The notes beneath the pieces were generated by a model. It searched no databases, was not told the DNA's origin, and worked only from the letters and a program-made list of their open reading frames with translations. Below are positions 4,102 to 23,893 of a stretch of DNA of 64,000 bases, in pieces; within the stretch, counting starts at the first letter, position 1, and every line of letters starts with the position of its first letter. Origin of the DNA: a bacterium BMS3Bbin08 (lineage in GTDB: Bacteria > Nitrospirota > Thermodesulfovibrionia > UBA6902 > BMS3Bbin08); NCBI GenBank assembly GCA_002897775.1, contig BDTR01000032.1:5556-69555 (forward strand). Direction: 5' to 3'. The translations under genes were made by a program, and so were the position numbers.

Positions 4102-4833
4102 ATGAGAAAAGGAATTTACTTATTACCCAATACACTGACACTGTGCGGGATGTTTTGCGGGTTTTACGCTATTCTCTCGGCACTTGACGGCAATTTTGTG
4201 CACGGCGCGTGGGCAATATTGATCGCGATCATCTTTGATGGACTTGACGGCTGGGTCGCGAGGCTGACCCACAGCACAACAAAATTCGGGATAGAGCTTG
4301 ACTCTCTTTCCGACCTTGTCGCGTTTGGAATCGCGCCTGCCGTGCTTATTTACAGCTGGGGGCTGAATTCTTTTGGCCGTATCGGCTGGGGCGCCGCGTT
4401 TTTCTACGTAATATGCGGGGCCTTAAGGCTTGCCCGTTTTAATGTGCAGATGGACACCGCGGAGAGCAAGGCATTTACAGGCATGCCCATTCCCGGAGCT
4501 GCCGGGATAACAGCCTGTATGGTTTTATTTTACACAGAGATCTGGGGCAGTCTGACAGGCAGGAACTATGTTGTGCTTTTACTGCCTTTTTTACTGGCGG
4601 CTCTTATGGTCAGCACATTCCGCTATCACGGTTTAAAGGAGATCGATTTTAAGAGGAGAAAACCATTCTGGCTTCTGGTCGCTATTGTGGCGGCCTTTGT
4701 TCTGGTTTTTATTAATCCTGAGATCGTGCTCTTTGTTTTTGGCATAATGTACATGTTATCCGGAATTATAGAGCACGTAAAGATCGTAAAAAAGAAGGAA
4801 CGCTTAGGGACCAGACAAAATGAGAACAGTTAA
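4102..4833 (+). CDS. pssA: CDP-diacylglycerol--serine O-phosphatidyltransferase (CDP-alcohol phosphatidyltransferase family)
   Basis: 243 aa multi-TM with the CDP-OH transferase motif DGLDGWVARL...GIELDSLSDLVAFG. Confidence 0.8.
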   Translation: MRKGIYLLPNTLTLCGMFCGFYAILSALDGNFVHGAWAILIAIIFDGLDGWVARLTHSTTKFGIELDSLSDLVAFGIAPAVLIYSWGLNSFGRIGWGAAFFYVICGALRLARFNVQMDTAESKAFTGMPIPGAAGITACMVLFYTEIWGSLTGRNYVVLLLPFLLAALMVSTFRYHGLKEIDFKRRKPFWLLVAIVAAFVLVFINPEIVLFVFGIMYMLSGIIEHVKIVKKKERLGTRQNENS

Positions 4834-6325
4834 GATATTCGATACAACTCTCAGGGACGGGGAACAGTCGCCTGGAGCGTCCATGAACGTGGATGAAAAG
4901 GTGCAGGTTGCAAAACAGCTTGCCCGCCTTGGCGTGGATATTATTGAGGCTGGTTTTGCATTCAGCTCTCCGGGTGATTTTGAAGCCATAAAGACCATTG
5001 GCGCGGAGGTGGAGGGTCCTGTGATCTGCAGTCTTGCCCGGGCAAAAGAAGATGATATAAAAAGAGCCTGGGAAGCGCTCAGGGATGTTCCGAAGAAAAG
5101 GATCCACACATTTCATTCGACCTCTGATATCCATCTTAAGCACCAGTTCCGCATAAGCCGTGAAGAGGCCTTAAAGAGGTCTGTGGAAATGGTCAGGTTC
5201 GCGCGGAGCCTTGTTGAAGATGTGGAATTTTCACCCATGGACGCGGCAAGGACAGATATCAGTTACCTCTGTGAGGTTATAGAGGCGGTGATTGACGCTG
5301 GCGCGTCAACGGTCAATATACCTGATACGGTCGGCTATAGCATTCCGAATGAATTCGGCGCTTTAATAAAGGATATCCATGGCAGGGTGAAAAACATTGA
5401 TAAGGCCGTGATCTCGGTTCACTGCCATAATGACCTCGGACTCGCGACGTCAAACTCTCTTGCCGCGGTGCTTAACGGAGCAGGCCAGATCGAATGCACT
5501 ATCAACGGGATCGGGGAGCGTGCCGGAAACTGTTCTATGGAAGAAGTCGTAATGGCGATGAGGACAAGGCGGGACCTCTTCAACGCTGATACTCACGTAA
5601 ACTCTGAGGAGATAATGCGCAGCAGCAGGCTTGTTACAAAGGTCACAGGCATCTCGGTTCAGCCGAACAAGGCTATCGTCGGCGCCAATGCCTTTGCTCA
5701 CGAGTCAGGTATCCATCAGGACGGCCTGTTAAAGGACAAGTCGACCTATGAGATCATCAAACCCGAGACAATAGGCCTTCACAAGACAAAGTTTGTTCTT
5801 GGCAAGCATTCCGGAAGGCATGCCTTCAGAACCAGGCTTGATGAGCTCGGCTATAAATTGGCTGACGATGAGATCAACAGCGCGTTTGAGAGGTTTAAAA
5901 AGATCGCGGACCAGAAAAAGGATATCTTTGATGAGGACATAGAGGCCCTTGTTTCTGAAGAGGTCGGGAAAACCCCTGAGATATACAGGCTCCTGGGATT
6001 AAAAGTGTCTTCAGGCCTCGATCAAAAACCCGCGGCTGAAATAAAGCTCAAGGTTGATAAAGAAGTTGTGGAAAAAACAGAACATGGTGACGGCCCGGTC
6101 GATGCTGTTTATAAAGCCATTGCTTTAATTACGGAAACAGAGAGCAGCCTCATCAAATATGAGGTCAAGAGCATAACCGGCGGGACTGACGCCCTTGGAG
6201 AGGTGATGGTATCTCTTGAAGAGGACGGCAGGTCGGTAAGAGGGCACGGCGCTGATACCGACATTATTGTTGCCTCTGCCCAGGCGTATATAAACGCTCT
6301 GAACAAGCTTGCCGCAAAAAAATAG
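4820..6325 (+). CDS. leuA: 2-isopropylmalate synthase
   Basis: 501 aa. N-terminus MRTVKIFDTTLRDGEQSPGASM (HMGL-like TIM barrel) plus a C-terminal LeuA regulatory domain. Overlaps the pssA stop by 14 nt. Confidence 0.9.
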   Translation: MRTVKIFDTTLRDGEQSPGASMNVDEKVQVAKQLARLGVDIIEAGFAFSSPGDFEAIKTIGAEVEGPVICSLARAKEDDIKRAWEALRDVPKKRIHTFHSTSDIHLKHQFRISREEALKRSVEMVRFARSLVEDVEFSPMDAARTDISYLCEVIEAVIDAGASTVNIPDTVGYSIPNEFGALIKDIHGRVKNIDKAVISVHCHNDLGLATSNSLAAVLNGAGQIECTINGIGERAGNCSMEEVVMAMRTRRDLFNADTHVNSEEIMRSSRLVTKVTGISVQPNKAIVGANAFAHESGIHQDGLLKDKSTYEIIKPETIGLHKTKFVLGKHSGRHAFRTRLDELGYKLADDEINSAFERFKKIADQKKDIFDEDIEALVSEEVGKTPEIYRLLGLKVSSGLDQKPAAEIKLKVDKEVVEKTEHGDGPVDAVYKAIALITETESSLIKYEVKSITGGTDALGEVMVSLEEDGRSVRGHGADTDIIVASAQAYINALNKLAAKK

Positions 6326-6380
6326 CGCTTAAGCAAGAGCCGTTTTTATCCTGTGAAAAGACCGCGATTTTGTCTCATTG

Positions 6381-6424
6381 GTTCACCCCGTGAGATAATC
6401 AGTTTTGCTATCTCACGGGGTGAA
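6381..6424. repeat. near-perfect 16-17 bp inverted repeat (GTTCACCCCGTGAGATA ... TATCTCACGGGGTGAA) in the leuA-leuC spacer
   Basis: Read directly. Stem 16-17 bp with an 11-nt loop and no downstream T-run. Confidence 0.6.
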
Positions 6425-6508
6425 TTGACTAATCTCAACAGCATCCTGTAATATGTCCAGTACATCTTTTTTTGAGAGAAAAACCCGGTTTTTTAATTTG
6501 GAGAAACC

Positions 6509-7786
6509 ATGAACATCACGGAAAAAATTCTTGCCGCACACCTGTCTGACCGGCAGGCGGGCTCAGGCAAAAAAGAGGTATCAGCCGGAGAGCTGATCAA
6601 CGCCAGGGTTGACCTTGTTCTTGCCAATGATATTACCGCGCCTATCTCAATTACCGAGTTTAAGAAAACCGGAGCAAAGGATGTATTTGATAAGAACAGG
6701 ATTGCTTTTATACCTGATCACTTTGCGCCTCAGAAAGACATAAAAGCTGCGGAACAGTGCAAGATGCTCAGGGAGTTTTCCAGGGAGTACGGTCTTGGGC
6801 TTTACTTTGAGGTTGGAAGAATGGGAGTTGAGCACGCGCTTCTTCCTGAAGAGGGCATTGTCGTGCCCGGAGACCTGGTCGTGGGGGCTGACAGCCATAC
6901 CTGCACCTACGGCGCGCTCGGGGCTTTTTCAACGGGCGTCGGCTCAACAGATGTGGCAGCGGCTATGGCAACGGGAGAGTGCTGGTTTAAGGTCCCTGAA
7001 TCAATGAAATTTATATATTACGGAAAGCTCAATAAATGGGTCAGCGGCAAGGACCTGATACTTCATACTATCGGGGATATCGGAGTGGACGGCGCGCTTT
7101 ACAGGGCAATGGAATTTGAGGGAGAAGTGATCAGGTCGCTTCCCATGCATTCGAGGCTCACAATGTGCAACATGGCAATAGAAGCCGGGGGGAAGAACGG
7201 GATCATTGTGCCCGATGAAATAACAGAGCAATATGCCAAAGGCAGAGCCAGGAGGGAATATACATTTTATACTTCTGACGAGGATGCGAAATACGCGGAG
7301 GTTAAAGAGTACGATTGTTCAAGTATCCCTCTTACTGTATCATGCCCGCACCTCCCGTCAAATACAAAGCCTGCCGCAGAGCTTTCCAATGTCGCGATCG
7401 ACCAGGTTGTTGTAGGCTCCTGCACGAACGGCAGAATAGAGGACATGAGAGAGGCGGCAGAGGTTATAAAAGGCAGAAAGGTAAACCCGAACGTAAGGAT
7501 GATAGTAATTCCCGCGACACAGAAGGTGTACCTTCAGGCTGTAACAGAAGGACTTGCCGAGATATTTGTGAACGCGGAGGCTGTTTTTTCAACCCCTACA
7601 TGCGGTCCGTGCCTCGGCGGGCATATGGGAGTCCTTGCGAAAGGCGAGCGGGCGATCGCGACAACAAACAGGAATTTTGTGGGCAGAATGGGGCACCCTG
7701 AAAGTGAAGTGTACCTTTCAAATCCCGCGGTTGCGGCGGCTTCCGCGATAAAGGGAAGGATAGCGACGCCTGAGGAAGTGATCTGA
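6509..7786 (+). CDS. leuC: 3-isopropylmalate dehydratase large subunit (aconitase family)
   Basis: 425 aa. Aconitase-family Fe-S ligand region ([10 protein letters not shown]..., PTCGPCLG). Followed by leuD. Confidence 0.88.
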
Positions 7787-9695: not shown

Positions 9696-10043
9696 ATGAT
9701 TATGGAACAGAATGTTTTTCTTGTTATCAGCAGTGATGTGATGGGAAAGGATGAGGATATAGGCAGGGCGGTAATAAAGAATTTTTTTGAGACTGTAAAG
9801 GCTACAAAAGAAATACCCCATACTATCTTTTTTGTAAATGCCGGGGTAAAGCTTACGACTGTAAACGAGGAGACAATAGCCATTCTCAAGGACATTGCAG
9901 AACTGGGAACAGAAATGTACTCATGCGGCACATGTCTGAAACATTATGACCTTGAAGACAAGATAAATGTCGGCAACAGGGGCGCTTCTACCCAGGTGGT
10001 CGAGGCGCTTAATGATTTCAAAAAAGTAGTATGGGTAGGGTAG
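9696..10043 (+). CDS. DsrE/DsrF-like (YedF C-terminal-like) sulfur/selenium-relay family protein
   Basis: About 115 aa from the ATG at 9696 after AGGAGG. DsrE-like fold with conserved Cys (MYSCGTCLKHYD). Sits next to the selC-like tRNA and selD. Confidence 0.5.
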   Translation: MIMEQNVFLVISSDVMGKDEDIGRAVIKNFFETVKATKEIPHTIFFVNAGVKLTTVNEETIAILKDIAELGTEMYSCGTCLKHYDLEDKINVGNRGASTQVVEALNDFKKVVWVG

Positions 10044-10113: not shown

Positions 10114-10242
10114 TCACTCTAACATCATAGCAGAGTGCCACGGGCTTGCCCGTGGGAATCTGCTAACCTTATTGCTTTTTACGTTCAGATAGAAATTGCA
10201 GCCTGTCCCGCAATATGTGCATGTAGTCCTGACCTTTTCCAT
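10114..10242 (-). pseudogene. 42-codon remnant of a molybdopterin oxidoreductase (formate-dehydrogenase-like) N-terminus
   Basis: Translation MEKVRTTCTYCGTGCNFYLNVKSNKV... carries the CxxCxxxC 4Fe-4S motif that opens Mo-bisPGD enzymes such as FdhF. It stops after 42 codons and nothing continues in any frame. Preceded by AAGGAG. The ORF-track call 10114..10326 is an upstream extension that overlaps the tRNA. Confidence 0.45.
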
Positions 10243-10270: not shown

Positions 10271-10367
10271 TGGAGAGGGGAAGTGGGAATTGAACCCACC
10301 AGGACATTTTCTGAATATCCTGTCACTGGTTTTGCAGACCAGGAGGAACACCAGTTCCATACCCCTC
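10271..10367 (-). tRNA. tRNA-Sec-like tRNA with Cys anticodon GCA and U73 (selC-like tRNA-Cys), 97 nt including CCA
   Basis: Manual fold of the reverse complement: 8-bp acceptor stem (GAGGGGUA/UUCCCCUC, one U.U), 6-bp D-stem (GGAAC/GUUCC plus terminal U.U) with 4-nt loop UGGU, 5-bp anticodon stem CUGGU/ACCAG with loop CUGCAAA (anticodon GCA), roughly 26-nt variable arm with a CAGGA/UCCUG stem, 5-bp T-stem GUGGG/CCCAC with loop UUCAAUU, discriminator U, encoded CCA. Confidence 0.75.
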
Positions 10368-10534
10368 ATACAATTAATGACTAACAGGTTTTTTGGCGCT
10401 ACTTCAGCGAAAATCCGTCTTGCACACGCTGACCTCTGTGACTGTAAACAATACGGTCCATCTCCTTTTTGTTTTTGAATGGCTTTAGGCTATCCCTGGA
10501 ACAGCCTTGAAGAATCGGAATATATAATATATTC

Positions 10535-10562
10535 TATAGGCATGTCAAATAGATTTATTTTA
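10535..10562 (+). promoter_or_regulatory. conserved 28-nt motif, copy 1 (TATAGGCATGTCAAATAGATTTATTTTA), about 115 nt upstream of the LysR gene
   Basis: 26/28 identical to 12694..12721, in the same orientation. Both lie in AT-rich promoter regions. Confidence 0.45.
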
Positions 10563-10676
10563 TTAACATTAGTTTATTGATAGATACAACCGATAGTTTG
10601 CAGGTCGGATTTAATCCGGGTTAAAATAAGTCGGCGCAATTCAGAGAAAATCAATCGCCATATTTGGAGCTAAGTT

Positions 10677-11564
10677 ATGGATATACAACATTTAAAGATA
10701 TTTATCTCAGTTTATAAAAACAGGGGTTTCTCAAAGGCGGCTGTAGAACTCCACCTAAGCCAACCGACTATCAGTGAACATATAAAAAATCTGGAGTTTG
10801 AGCTTGGCTGTAAACTCTTTGACAGAGTTGGGCGCACTATTATTCCGACTAGAGAGGCGGGTATCATATATCCAAAGGCATTACAAATAATAGAAGACCT
10901 TGAAAAACTAAGGGAAGAACTGTCTCATGCCGGAAGTAATATAAAAGGGCAACTGATTCTGGGAGCAAGCACCATCCCCGGTACATACATCCTGCCGGTC
11001 ATGGCATCGGAGTTTAAGAAGCTGTACCCCGAGGTCTCATTTGAAATAATAATAGAGGATTCAAGAAAGATTACTGATATGGTCTTAAATTATGATCTGA
11101 TACTCGGTGCAGTAGGGGCTGAAATGGAACCGGGGAAAATTAACTATCTGCCTTTTATAGAGGATGAGCTGATACTTGCAGCCGGTGAAAAAGTTATTCC
11201 AAAAAATACCATAAGTGTGAAGGGATTAAAAGATGTCCCGTTTATCTTGAGGGAAGAAGGATCCGGAACGCTTAAAACAATGGAGCGTTTTCTAAATAAA
11301 AAGGGGATAGATATCGGGGAATTAAATGTTGTTGCAGTGCTTGGCTCTACCGACTCAGTGAAACAGGCAATAAAGTCAGGACTTGGTGCGTCAATATTAT
11401 CGAGGATTGCTATTAAGGACGAGTTGACTTGCGGGGCATTGAAGGAGATAAGGATAAGAGGGCTGAAAATGAAAAGGAGCTTTTATCTGATTACTCATAA
11501 AAAACGTGCTTTACCGAATCCTTACAATGCATTTTACAACTATCTGAAAGATTCAAAGCGATAG
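10677..11564 (+). CDS. LysR-family transcriptional regulator
   Basis: 295 aa. N-terminal wHTH (FSKAAVELHLSQPTISEHIKNLE) plus a C-terminal LysR substrate-binding domain. Confidence 0.85.
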   Translation: MDIQHLKIFISVYKNRGFSKAAVELHLSQPTISEHIKNLEFELGCKLFDRVGRTIIPTREAGIIYPKALQIIEDLEKLREELSHAGSNIKGQLILGASTIPGTYILPVMASEFKKLYPEVSFEIIIEDSRKITDMVLNYDLILGAVGAEMEPGKINYLPFIEDELILAAGEKVIPKNTISVKGLKDVPFILREEGSGTLKTMERFLNKKGIDIGELNVVAVLGSTDSVKQAIKSGLGASILSRIAIKDELTCGALKEIRIRGLKMKRSFYLITHKKRALPNPYNAFYNYLKDSKR

Positions 11565-11600: not shown

Positions 11601-12650
11601 TTAACTGATCTGTACACATGGTTGATTACCGCCTGCTACTTCACCAATTAAAACAGCAGACTCAATTCCTTCATTCTTCAATTTTTCTATTAGAATTGAT
11701 GCATGAGAGTTTTTGACTGAGAGGAGAAGCCCTCCTGAGGTCTGAGGATCAAAAAGCAATTCTTCTTCCTCTGAAGAGAGTTTTATCTTTATCTCTAAAA
11801 ATCCCTCGGACAATTCTCTGTTCGGTTTATTGCTGCCCGTGGTCACTCCCTTGCGATACATTTCTATGGCATTCGGGAAAATAGGCAGATTTCTATAAAA
11901 CAGGTTTATCTGCATTTTACTGCCCTTCGCAATCTCCAGTGCATGTCCGACAATACCAAAACCCGTTACATCAGTACATGAGTGAATGTCGAATTTCAAG
12001 GCTGTCTCAATGGCTTTACCATTAAGAAAAGCTATCCAGGGGAGCAGGGGCTCCAGTTTTTTAAAGGGCAGCTTTTTGGAGCGGCAGGCGTTGAAGAGCA
12101 CGCCGGTCCCCAGCGGTTTAGTAAGAATCAGTGCATCTCCCTCGCGAGCGTCGCAGTTGGTGAGTATCCGCTCAGGGTGAACTATCCCTGTAACCGCAAG
12201 GCCGTACTTCGGCTCATTGTCGTCAACCGAATGGCCTCCGGCCATGGAAGCGCCGGCTTCGATTACTTTATCACTTCCTCCGCGGAGTATCTCTTTTAAT
12301 ATTCCGATGTCAAGCTGCTTTGAAGGGAACATCACAACATTCAGGGCTGTAAGGGGTTTGCCGCCCATTGCGTAAACGTCGGAAAGAGAATTAGCTGCAG
12401 AAATCTGCCCAAACCAGTACGGATCATCCACCGGCGGAGTAATATAGTCGACAGTAGATATTACGGCAATATCAGGTGAAAGGCGGTATACAGCCGCATC
12501 ATCGCTGGTTTCGAAACCTACTAACAGGTCAGGATCATCCGGGGTTTGAATCGATCCGAGCGCAGCCGACAGAACTGTCGGGCCAATTTTTGCAGCTCAC
12601 CCGCAGGTTCTTGCGAGACCTGGTAAGGTTTTTTTCTTAAAAAAAGTCAT
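11601..12650 (-). CDS. selD: selenophosphate synthetase (selenide, water dikinase), selenoprotein form with in-frame UGA (Sec) at 12597-12599
   Basis: The ORF track begins at an internal GTG (12431). Extending upstream gives MTFFKKKTLPGLARTCG-U-AAKIGPTVLSAALG...DPDLLVGFETSDDAAVYRL, which aligns with E. coli SelD GAGCGCKISPKVLETIL...DPNLLVGNETRDDAAVY with U at catalytic Cys17. ATG at 12650 after a GAGG RBS. No other stops between. Confidence 0.88.
12566..12582 (-). promoter_or_regulatory. candidate bacterial SECIS hairpin (CCGACAG-UU-CUGUCGG) 15-33 nt downstream of the selD UGA
   Basis: 7-bp stem with G/U in the apical region, at the spacing bacterial SECIS elements occupy downstream of UGA. 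Confidence 0.5.
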
Positions 12651-12693
12651 ATAACCTCACATTTAATAATTTATCGAAATAGTAAATAATAAC

Positions 12694-12721
12694 TATAGGA
12701 ATGTCAAATAGATATATTTTA
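12694..12721 (+). promoter_or_regulatory. conserved 28-nt motif, copy 2 (TATAGGAATGTCAAATAGATATATTTTA) in the selD/nikR divergent promoter region
   Basis: 44 nt upstream of the selD start and about 160 nt upstream of nikR. Matches 10535..10562. Confidence 0.45.
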
Positions 12722-12882
12722 CAGAATGAGTATCATTTATAGAGAATGCCTATATTAGCACGAGAGTGCCGATATCATATTTTGACGGCAATGACTATAG
12801 ATAAGCATTTTCAATGTTGAAACTTGACAATACATCAATACTAATGATATTGTAGTGCTACTTTAATTGAAAAAGTAACACC

Positions 12883-22825: not shown

Positions 22826-23893
22826 TTGAGGGAGAATAACGGGAAAAGCATAGGTGTTGTTTTACTGAACCTCGGCGGACCGGATTCTTTAAGTTCCGTG
22901 CGTCCCTTCCTGTATAATCTGTTTTCTGACAGGGGCATTATCAGGCTCGGTCCTTCCTTTCTGCAGAAATCCATTGCATGGCTGATATCAGGGTACCGTT
23001 CGAAAAAATCAGAAGAAATGTACAGCCTGATAGGAGGCAAATCTCCAATATTTGAGATTACAACGGCCCAGGCTGAAGCGCTTGAGAAAGCACTAAATAC
23101 AGAAGTTGAGAAGATAGGAAGTTTGGAAGATAAGATATCCTCAACATCTCAGCCTCTCAATTTCTTAACTTCCTCTTTCAAGGTGTATGTGGGTATGCGC
23201 TACTGGTATCCATATATAAGCGACACAGTTGATAAGATTCGTAGTGATGGTATTGAACAAGTGGTTGTGTTAAGCCTTTACCCCCACTATTCAAAGGCAA
23301 CGACAGGTTCTTCAGTTGCCGAGTTTAAACGCGTGATTTCACGATTCACGATTCCCTCCAAACAGCCGGCGGGCAGGCACGATTCACGATTCACGGTCAA
23401 ATATATTGATCAGTGGTATGATTTTCCCCTGTATATTGACGCGCTTTCAGATCGTATTGCAGAGGGGATGTCAAAATTCAAAGGAAAGACTTTTGATATT
23501 CTATACAGCGCGCACAGTCTTCCTGAAAGCTTCATCAAACAGGGAGACCCGTACCTCGATCATATCAAATCAACCATAAAGGCAGTTAACCCGTCAATCG
23601 GCAAGTGGCATCTTTCTTTCCAGAGCAGGAGCGGGCCGGTCAAATGGTTACAGCCTGACACGGAAGAGACTATAATCAGGCTTGCAAAGGGCGGCGTCAA
23701 GAATTTACTGGTAGTGCCGATAAGTTTTGTATCTGACCATATAGAAACCCTCTATGAAATAGATATTTACTATAAAAAGATCGCAAAGAGTTATGGTATA
23801 AATTTAAAGAGATGTGAATCATTAAATTTATCCGAAAAATTCATAAACGCTCTTAAAGAGTTGGTACTGGAAAAACTAAAGGAGTCGGAATGA
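22826..23893 (+). CDS. hemH: ferrochelatase (proto- or coproporphyrin ferrochelatase)
   Basis: 355 aa. Opens GVVLLNLGGPDSL and ends with the ferrochelatase C-terminal core. Contains a short internal tandem duplication (SRFTIPSKQPAGRHDSRFTV). Confidence 0.85.
   Translation: MRENNGKSIGVVLLNLGGPDSLSSVRPFLYNLFSDRGIIRLGPSFLQKSIAWLISGYRSKKSEEMYSLIGGKSPIFEITTAQAEALEKALNTEVEKIGSLEDKISSTSQPLNFLTSSFKVYVGMRYWYPYISDTVDKIRSDGIEQVVVLSLYPHYSKATTGSSVAEFKRVISRFTIPSKQPAGRHDSRFTVKYIDQWYDFPLYIDALSDRIAEGMSKFKGKTFDILYSAHSLPESFIKQGDPYLDHIKSTIKAVNPSIGKWHLSFQSRSGPVKWLQPDTEETIIRLAKGGVKNLLVVPISFVSDHIETLYEIDIYYKKIAKSYGINLKRCESLNLSEKFINALKELVLEKLKESE

Follow-up and report, generated by a model that had tools for sequence, protein, structure and literature searches.

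The 64,000-nucleotide (nt) stretch analysed here (the window; contig BDTR01000032.1) comes from 'bacterium BMS3Bbin08', an uncultivated anaerobic Nitrospirota metagenome-assembled genome (MAG) from a deep-sea massive sulfide deposit, and encodes a tRNA in which the shape of a selenocysteine (Sec) tRNA is combined with the identity marks of a cysteine (Cys) tRNA. That the feature is a real tRNA gene of this kind was confirmed. It probably functions as a member of the selC* tRNACys class known from the literature, also named tRNAReC, in which SelB-dependent reading of UGA as cysteine has been reported for a homologue. Such tRNAs have been described since 2017; the part that may be new is a promoter-operator motif common to the tRNA gene and the nearby selenophosphate synthetase gene, selD.

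Fold, identity and relatives of the tRNA

The tRNA (minus strand, 10367..10271) has the sequence GAGGGGUAUGGAACUGGUGUUCCUCCUGGUCUGCAAAACCAGUGACAGGAUAUUCAGAAAAUGUCCUGGUGGGUUCAAUUCCCACUUCCCCUCUCCA. It is the sole tRNA detected in the 64-kb window by ARAGORN, which calls it tRNA-Cys(gca), and tRNA-Sec (RF01852) is the sole Rfam family found there (a match over the full model with 56.7 bits, E 8e-9; gathering score 47). The alignment to the Rfam model agrees with ARAGORN on the GCA anticodon. The minimum free energy fold, at −41.9 kcal/mol (z = −3.97), is a five-arm cloverleaf whose stability was matched by none of 200 shuffled sequences. Our own Nitrospirota covariance model (R1) scored the tRNA at 96.4 bits.

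The original prediction had placed a Cys identity in a bacterial tRNA-Sec scaffold with 8-bp acceptor and 5-bp T stems (8/5), and this was borne out by U73, the GCA anticodon and G1:C72, with ARAGORN and RF01852 in agreement. The anticodon loop CUGCAAA and the discriminator U (U10274) were read directly as predicted, and the variable arm, put at about 26 nt with a stem of its own, has 26 nt and a stem of 8–9 bp. The G1:C72 pair fits charging by the housekeeping cysteinyl-tRNA synthetase (CysRS). Two of the predicted stems were upheld in part. The 8/5 layout is supported by covariation (see below), but pair 7:66 is a U.U mismatch; all relatives have U-A or C-G here, and U.U is confined to this species group. 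The predicted D arm of a 6-bp stem and a 4-nt loop has the loop (UGGU), but the stem consists of five Watson-Crick pairs and an outer U.U, and the sixth pair is formed in only 7 of 15 sequences. A sixth anticodon-stem pair needs a bulged nucleotide and fits, by eye, 8 of 11 sequences. Six base pairs were rejected for the D stem and, without a bulge, for the anticodon stem, because the outer pairs are mostly mismatched in the relatives; 9-bp acceptor calls from stem-scoring, in which the discriminator is paired, were set aside using the encoded CCA.

Relatives were collected by scanning species-representative genomes for tRNAs with a long variable arm and a GCA anticodon, which gave at least 119 loci. 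The scan pattern demanded UGGU in the D loop and GGTTCRANTCC in the T arm; the set of relatives is thus biased as well as incomplete, and a taxon's absence from it carries no information. Related genes are present in at least 14 Nitrospirota/Thermodesulfovibrionales representatives (L017, L033, L035, L036, L047, L050, L072, L076, L096, L100, L116, L117, L118 and L122); a sister genome, L130, is an additional carrier, which makes 15 relatives, or 16 sequences including the window. The GCA anticodon, U73 and the encoded CCA are kept in all 15 relatives, each of which scores above the Rfam tRNA-Sec gathering score, and U73 is invariant in the 16 Nitrospirota family sequences found. Covariation was counted in an 11-sequence alignment (A2) over the acceptor stem of 8 bp and the 5-bp D, anticodon and T stems. 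Standard pairs fill 98.8% of the cells, against 54–67% in controls with slid partners, and eight pairs show two-sided (compensatory) changes, a number reached in none of 500 shuffles. The eighth acceptor pair, on whose presence the 8/5 layout depends, covaries (A-U in 10 sequences, G-C in one), and the T stem GUGGG/CCCAC is invariant across the alignment.

Within the species group, four assemblies span the tRNA (the window, its source contig, BMS3Abin10 and ERZ1742236), and its sequence is the same in all of them. That of L130 differs at three positions, all fold-neutral: A2 to G, giving a G.U pair, an unpaired base of the variable arm and a base of the T loop. Outside the Nitrospirota, model R1 also recovers members with U73 from Desulfotomaculia, other Bacillota, Armatimonadota, Planctomycetota and Thermosulfurimonas, as well as delta-type forms (8/4) with fdhA and selB flanking.

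The sequence marks of the selC*/tRNAReC class, U73, GCA and a tRNASec-like body, are all present. The selC* tRNACys were described by Mukai et al. (2017, PMC5389517) as tRNASec-like, with U73 and either GCA or UCA as the anticodon, in anaerobic Firmicutes, Thermodesulfobacteria, Nitrospirae (Thermodesulfovibrio) and Deltaproteobacteria; the original prediction was thus right that Sec-like tRNACys species had been reported, including from Nitrospirae. Renaming as tRNAReC is credited, in secondary descriptions, to Vargas-Rodriguez et al. (2018). The view that the function of these tRNAs is unresolved was overstated, the class having been named and tested in E. coli in 2017–2018. According to PMC11415595, which summarises that work, SelB and not EF-Tu carries the Sec-like tRNACys(GCA) of Desulfotomaculum nigrificans, which shows no interaction with EF-Tu and reads UGA as Cys; PMC13582414, a second summary, states that UCA and GCA types alike mediate UGA recoding when a selenocysteine insertion sequence (SECIS) follows. 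Both accounts contradict the further claim that the present tRNA cannot decode the UGA of selD, since a homologue of the GCA type is reported to read UGA plus SECIS as Cys via SelB.

The D. nigrificans tRNAReC is likewise Sec-like with GCA and U73, and Desulfotomaculia genes (e.g. L079, L084 and L115) have the 8/5 layout, an encoded CCA and 55–72 bits with the Nitrospirota model. It belongs to another phylum, however, and its similarity is moderate; the window tRNA has U7.U66 and a longer variable arm. The selC* tRNAs of Deltaproteobacteria (Desulfococcus biacutus, Desulfomonile tiedjei; PMC5389517) share, at the level of the class, U73, the mimicry of tRNASec, the association with fdhA and selB and coexistence with the Sec machinery. 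They are 8/4 with a bulged A51a, often with UCA and A1:U72, and have a dedicated selB* and cysS* downstream, whereas the window tRNA is 8/5 with GCA and G1:C72, and neither selB* nor cysS* was found in the 64 kb. With canonical bacterial selC the gene shares the 8/5 layout, the long D stem with its 4-nt loop, the long variable arm, A36-A37-A38 and the RF01852 match, but canonical tRNASec has UCA and G73. The seryl-tRNA synthetase (SerRS)/SelA route is not expected for a tRNA with GCA and U73. Canonical class I tRNACys (7/5, variable loop of 4–5 nt) differs from the 8/5 layout and 26-nt arm found here, and allo-tRNAs, which have a 12-bp branch (8/4 or 9/3) and usually Ser identity, differ from the 13-bp 8/5 branch.

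Two further groups of tRNAs with a GCA anticodon were seen in the scan. Long-variable-arm, Sec-model-positive tRNAs with GCA occur in Cloacimonadota (L014, L020, L034, L037, L046, L052, L091 and L109), with G or A rather than U before the CCA and an apparent 1:72 mismatch; that of L014 adjoins fdhA and that of L046 selB. These may be Sec donors for UGC of the tRNASec(GCA) type and not tRNAReC. Class II tRNAs with GCA, a 7/5 layout and a Ser/Leu/Tyr-like D arm (L011, L018, L045, L051, L059, L064, L070, L071, L073, L080, L085, L087, L107 and L119) were found in Armatimonas, Bacteroides/Clostridium MAGs, Pseudaquabacterium, Methanothrix and others; the one in L045 has U73 and CCA. These tRNAs may have a hybrid identity or mistranslate.

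A predicted promoter-operator element before the tRNA and selD

The tRNA gene is preceded by a predicted sigma-70-like promoter with 11 of 12 consensus positions (−35 TTGACA at 10548-10543, an 18-nt spacer, −10 TATATT at 10524-10519), and the box ATAAAATAAATCTAT (10563-10549), one mismatch away from ATAG-N7-CTAT, lies directly before the −35. From the position of this promoter, the transcript would have a 5' leader of about 145 nt. Upstream of selD lies the element ATCTATTTGACATTCCTATAG, which agrees with its counterpart at the tRNA in 20 of 21 positions and ends 43 nt before the selD ATG. The 21-nt pattern ATCTATTTGACATNCCTATAG has exactly two matches in the window, 10554..10534 before the tRNA and 12713..12693 before selD, and none in 100 shuffles. 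The two copies flank a gene for a LysR-type regulator that passes the equivalog cutoff for LysR_Se (NF040786). Dyads of the type T-N11-A beside the −35, and divergent pairs of regulator and target, are typical of LysR-type regulators.

In related loci the ATAG-N7-CTAT dyad abuts a −35-like hexamer, often with another CTATAG about 8 nt downstream, and at least 13 of the 16 Nitrospirota loci have the box upstream of their tRNA. Relative to the 5' end of the tRNA, it lies at −51 to −57 in L017, L117, L047, L033, L100 and, with one mismatch, L116, at −104 in L072, at −140 to −150 in L035, L036 and L096, at −196 in the window and at −217 in L130; in L076 and L122 it lies at about −1,200, with a transglutaminase-like gene between promoter and tRNA. 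Ten exact boxes were counted in the 400 nt upstream of each of the 16 tRNAs, where about 0.14 are expected from base composition. With a weight matrix trained on 11 sites (25–33 bits for the training sites, null maximum 12.6), up to 15 of the 16 loci have a match of 18 bits or more upstream of the tRNA or the operon that holds it, the 11 training sites included; sites outside the training set were found upstream of the tRNA-containing operon in L050 and upstream of selD in the window (22.5 bits). The window and L130 have nearly the same promoter block, although identity in its flanks is only about 74–79%.

The LysR_Se group was defined by Lin et al. (2015; PMC5322559), and the archaeal orthologue HrsM controls genes for Cys isoforms according to selenium status, with selenophosphate as the suggested effector (PMC5322559). 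The motif and the gene arrangement suggest that tRNA and selD probably form a LysR_Se regulon through the common operator-promoter. No link between LysR_Se and tRNAReC was found in the literature searched, which comprised neither the primary paper of Vargas-Rodriguez et al. (2018) nor the supplements of Mukai et al. (2017).

Matches of the motif were also seen elsewhere. In L017, box and −35 (4206-4235; 28.3 bits, not a training site) precede a TonB-dependent receptor gene (4378-5808) located after selB, which may be another putative member of a selenium regulon, e.g. for uptake. In the window, two adjacent one-mismatch copies of ATAG-N7-CTAT-TTG lie at 23738-23773, at the 3' end of a ferrochelatase gene and upstream of an amine-oxidase-like gene; the three matches to this pattern in the window, against 1.45 expected, are compatible with chance. 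In L033 (a Thermodesulfovibrio MAG; 6177-6641), the Sec-like tRNACys heads a cluster with three ordinary tRNAs, and a LysR-type box of its own lies at −51.

A structured 5' leader or riboswitch was considered and dropped; the leader folds no better than shuffled sequences (z = 0.1 to 0.7), and Rfam gave no match in it. A block of the leader that is conserved in L130 (10390-10465, minus strand) contains an open reading frame (ORF) of 20 codons, MDRIVYSHRGQRVQDGFSLK for the window and MNRIICSRRGQRVQNRFWLK for L130, as well as a hairpin whose arms differ by one compensatory change, CGC/GCG in the window against GGC/GCC in the sister genome; in L130 a terminator-like U-run comes after the hairpin.

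Gene neighbourhood

The positions of the tRNA, its parts and the surrounding features are collected in Table 1. The selenium locus described in the original prediction is indeed there: the YedF gene (TIGR03527), a formate-dehydrogenase remnant directly downstream of the tRNA, and selD with an in-frame TGA. The Sec codon of selD lies at 12599-12597 in the motif TCG-U-AAK and is followed immediately by a SECIS-like hairpin (about 12596-12555), so that a Sec-type selD with such a hairpin is found 1.2 kb from the tRNA.

Table 1. Positions of the tRNA, its parts and the neighbouring features in the window.
Feature	Position	Strand	Remarks
Probable selC*-type tRNACys(GCA), tRNAReC	10271..10367	minus	97 nt; ARAGORN, Rfam, fold
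tRNA acceptor stem, 5' strand GAGGGGUA	10367-10360	minus	8 nt; position 1 is G10367
tRNA D arm	about 10358-10345	minus	stem GGAAC/GUUCC, loop UGGU
tRNA anticodon GCA	G10335-C10334-A10333	minus	loop CUGCAAA, stem CUGGU/ACCAG
tRNA variable arm	10325-10300	minus	26 nt, own stem of 8–9 bp
tRNA T arm	10299-10283	minus	5-bp stem GUGGG/CCCAC
tRNA acceptor stem, 3' strand UUCCCCUC	10282-10275	minus	8 nt
tRNA discriminator U73 and encoded CCA	U10274; 10273-10271	minus	
Predicted tRNA promoter-operator	10519..10563	minus	LysR-type box, −35, CCTATAG half-site, −10
Predicted selD promoter-operator	12693..12722	minus	−10 candidate TACTAT; element ATCTATTTGACATTCCTATAG at 12713-12693
YedF, C-terminal DsrE-like half	9702..10043	plus	113 aa; NCBIfam TIGR03527, 121.5 bits (cutoff 110), profile positions 83-194
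fdhA-like remnant, molybdopterin oxidoreductase Fe4S4 domain	10114..10242	minus	42 codons, then stop; Pfam Molybdop_Fe4S4, E 2e-8
LysR_Se regulator	10677..11564	plus, divergent from the tRNA	NCBIfam NF040786 equivalog, 302.7 bits (cutoff 250)
selD, selenophosphate synthetase	11601..12650	minus	TIGR00476, 283.8 bits

Parts of this neighbourhood recur in the relatives. LysR_Se orthologues (NF040786; 326 bits in L072, 284 bits in L036) adjoin the tRNA in L035, L036, L072, L076, L100 and L122. The order LysR_Se-tRNA-YedF, all co-directional, is found in L035, L036, L072 and L100; in L076 LysR_Se is co-directional with the tRNA and no YedF was seen at the locus, and in L122 LysR_Se is divergent, with YedF after the tRNA. 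YedF is downstream of the tRNA in L096 and L118 as well, and in six related loci the YedF after the tRNA is full-length (ORFs of about 194–229 aa). The YedF proteins of the relatives have two domains with an N-terminal CPxP motif, L072 has two copies, and the species group of the window has the half only. Directly downstream of the tRNA, selB is found in L017 and L117; a Sec-type selD adjoins the tRNA in L116, and a molybdopterin oxidoreductase gene lies downstream in L050. The neighbourhood of LysR_Se, YedF and selD with a LysR-type operator belongs to the window and was not seen in the Bacillota loci examined. With the SelB of L017 as query, the 120 matches listed are from other Nitrospirota (67–100% identity), P0067 belonging to another MAG and having no tRNA upstream.

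The window corresponds to contig NODE_77 of ERZ1742238, and the sister MAG is BMS3Abin10 (GCA_002897755.1). Comparison with L130 (3556-4261, against 10255/10263 of the window) revealed a 706-bp indel between the tRNA and the fdhA remnant. The 706 extra bases of L130 code for 2Fe-2S and 4Fe-4S domains at the N-terminus of this fdhA-like gene, whose C-terminus is truncated there too; the window strain has lost the N-terminal part of an already truncated gene. Since L130 keeps more of it, the ancestor had a tRNA-fdhA unit that is eroding in this lineage. On the side of the tRNA where YedF lies, the window and L130 are 98.9% identical, but towards LysR identity is only about 74%, which places the tRNA at a recombination or divergence boundary.

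Alternative readings and proposed role

Several observations weigh against a functional tRNAReC in the regulatory setting proposed here. The acceptor stem has U7.U66 where the relatives pair, and the outer D pair is U.U. In L133, a short assembly (DRR093004), a G to A change in the anticodon stem gives an A.C mismatch, alongside an A to G change in the D stem that gives a G.U pair; it may reflect a misassembly or a minority form in the population. Some decay is conceivable, because both a decaying fdhA fragment and the sharp divergence boundary with the sister genome adjoin the tRNA. The long variable arm is the main determinant for SerRS, so some serylation is possible. Function was tested for the Bacillota tRNA only, and the 2018 tRNAReC results are cited here from two secondary descriptions. 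Within the 64-kb window no selA, selB, cysS, canonical selC or second tRNA was found. The connection with LysR_Se consists of a motif and adjacency, and the box is palindromic and AT-rich, so that another regulator could bind.

The gene could be a second, oddly shaped elongator tRNACys that is charged by CysRS, delivered by EF-Tu and reads UGC/UGU without any recoding. U73, GCA and G1:C72 are all present, ARAGORN calls a tRNA-Cys, and the housekeeping tRNACys is not in the window. However, conservation with covariation across a phylum of a 13-bp acceptor/T helix, a variable arm of 26 nt and a D loop of 4 nt would be odd for an ordinary isoacceptor, the gene is consistently found among selenium genes, and a homologue reportedly does not interact with EF-Tu (PMC11415595). 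We consider an elongator role unlikely.

The mismatches, the halved YedF and the fdhA fragment, shortened further by the 706-bp deletion in the window strain, are what would be expected of a decaying or silent, functionless relic of a former selC*-fdhA unit. Disrupted stems in close relatives had been named in advance as a sign of a pseudo-tRNA; the three changes in L130 all keep the fold, and L133 has its A.C mismatch. The tRNA is identical in four independent assemblies and its changes in L130 are fold-neutral, while the flanks differ by 2–26%. The anticodon loop, U73 and CCA are intact, and a strong promoter with the conserved operator of the family is retained, also in L130. These observations make a relic improbable.

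A third reading makes the tRNA a Sec donor for UGC, charged by SerRS, converted by SelA and used by SelB to insert Sec, as for tRNASec(GCA) of Aeromonas salmonicida. The Sec-like fold passes the tRNA-Sec model, Mukai et al. (2017, PMC5389517) regard U73 in allo-tRNAs as acceptable to SerRS, and a natural tRNASec with a GCA anticodon exists, PMC11415595 citing Mukai et al. (2016) for that of A. salmonicida. The latter has the Sec shape and a Cys anticodon, but by that account it has Sec identity and inserts Sec at UGC, whereas Cys identity and Cys at UGA are expected for the window tRNA. All 16 Nitrospirota sequences have U73 against G73 in tRNASec, the homologue that was tested carries Cys according to PMC13582414 and PMC11415595, and no target with UGC plus SECIS was found; the chance that the tRNA donates Sec is very small. 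A non-decoding role, e.g. titration of SelB or a tRNA-like signal of cysteine or selenium status, would suit the regulated promoter in common with selD but is highly improbable given the full anticodon loop, T loop, encoded CCA and covarying acceptor stem, which are the needs of a translating tRNA, and given a homologue that decodes in vivo by published accounts (PMC13582414, PMC11415595).

We thus favour a tRNAReC, for which charging by CysRS, dependence on SelB and UGA-to-Cys decoding are carried over from the published work on the Bacillota homologue. By this analogy, the ordinary CysRS would charge the tRNA with cysteine via U73, GCA and G1:C72, the acceptor/T helix of 13 bp (8+5), together with the Sec-like body, would direct it away from EF-Tu and on to SelB, and SECIS-bound SelB would let it read UGA as Cys, with the G34.A mismatch tolerated. 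When Sec-tRNASec is scarce, selenoprotein mRNAs, e.g. that of the adjacent Sec-type selD, could in this way be completed with Cys. The selD gene would be the obvious local client, its UGA preceding a hairpin. A Sec-dependent SelD needs its own product, and we therefore suggest that a Cys-inserting tRNA would remove this circularity. A canonical selC elsewhere in the genome is a reasonable expectation, since all isolate genomes with selC* examined by Mukai et al. have a complete Sec apparatus (PMC5389517).

LysR_Se, encoded between the tRNA and selD, probably controls both through the shared operator-promoter. We put forward only tentatively that this selenium-sensing regulator switches the meaning of SECIS-linked UGA by transcription: tRNA and selD would be turned on together when selenium or selenophosphate is scarce, giving Cys versions of selenoproteins and a restart of the Sec pathway. 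We know of no recoding tRNA described as being under a dedicated metabolite-responsive transcription factor. The Methanococcus HrsM/LysR_Se system (PMC5322559) has a regulator of the same subfamily and a similar proposed logic, in which selenium status sets Cys or Sec versions; the Methanococcus switch is between separate genes, whereas the proposed target here is a recoding tRNA together with selD, with binding and effector both putative.

Overall, the tRNA by itself is confirmatory and adds one more member to the class, from a deep-sea sulfide-deposit Nitrospirota MAG. Its context, the same operator-promoter on the tRNA and on a Sec-dependent selD, offers a concrete lead on when and why cells use tRNAReC; the arrangement suggests a selenium-dependent substitution of Cys for Sec and an exit from the bootstrapping problem of SelD. 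For annotation, an in-frame UGA in such genomes may stand for Cys as well as for Sec.

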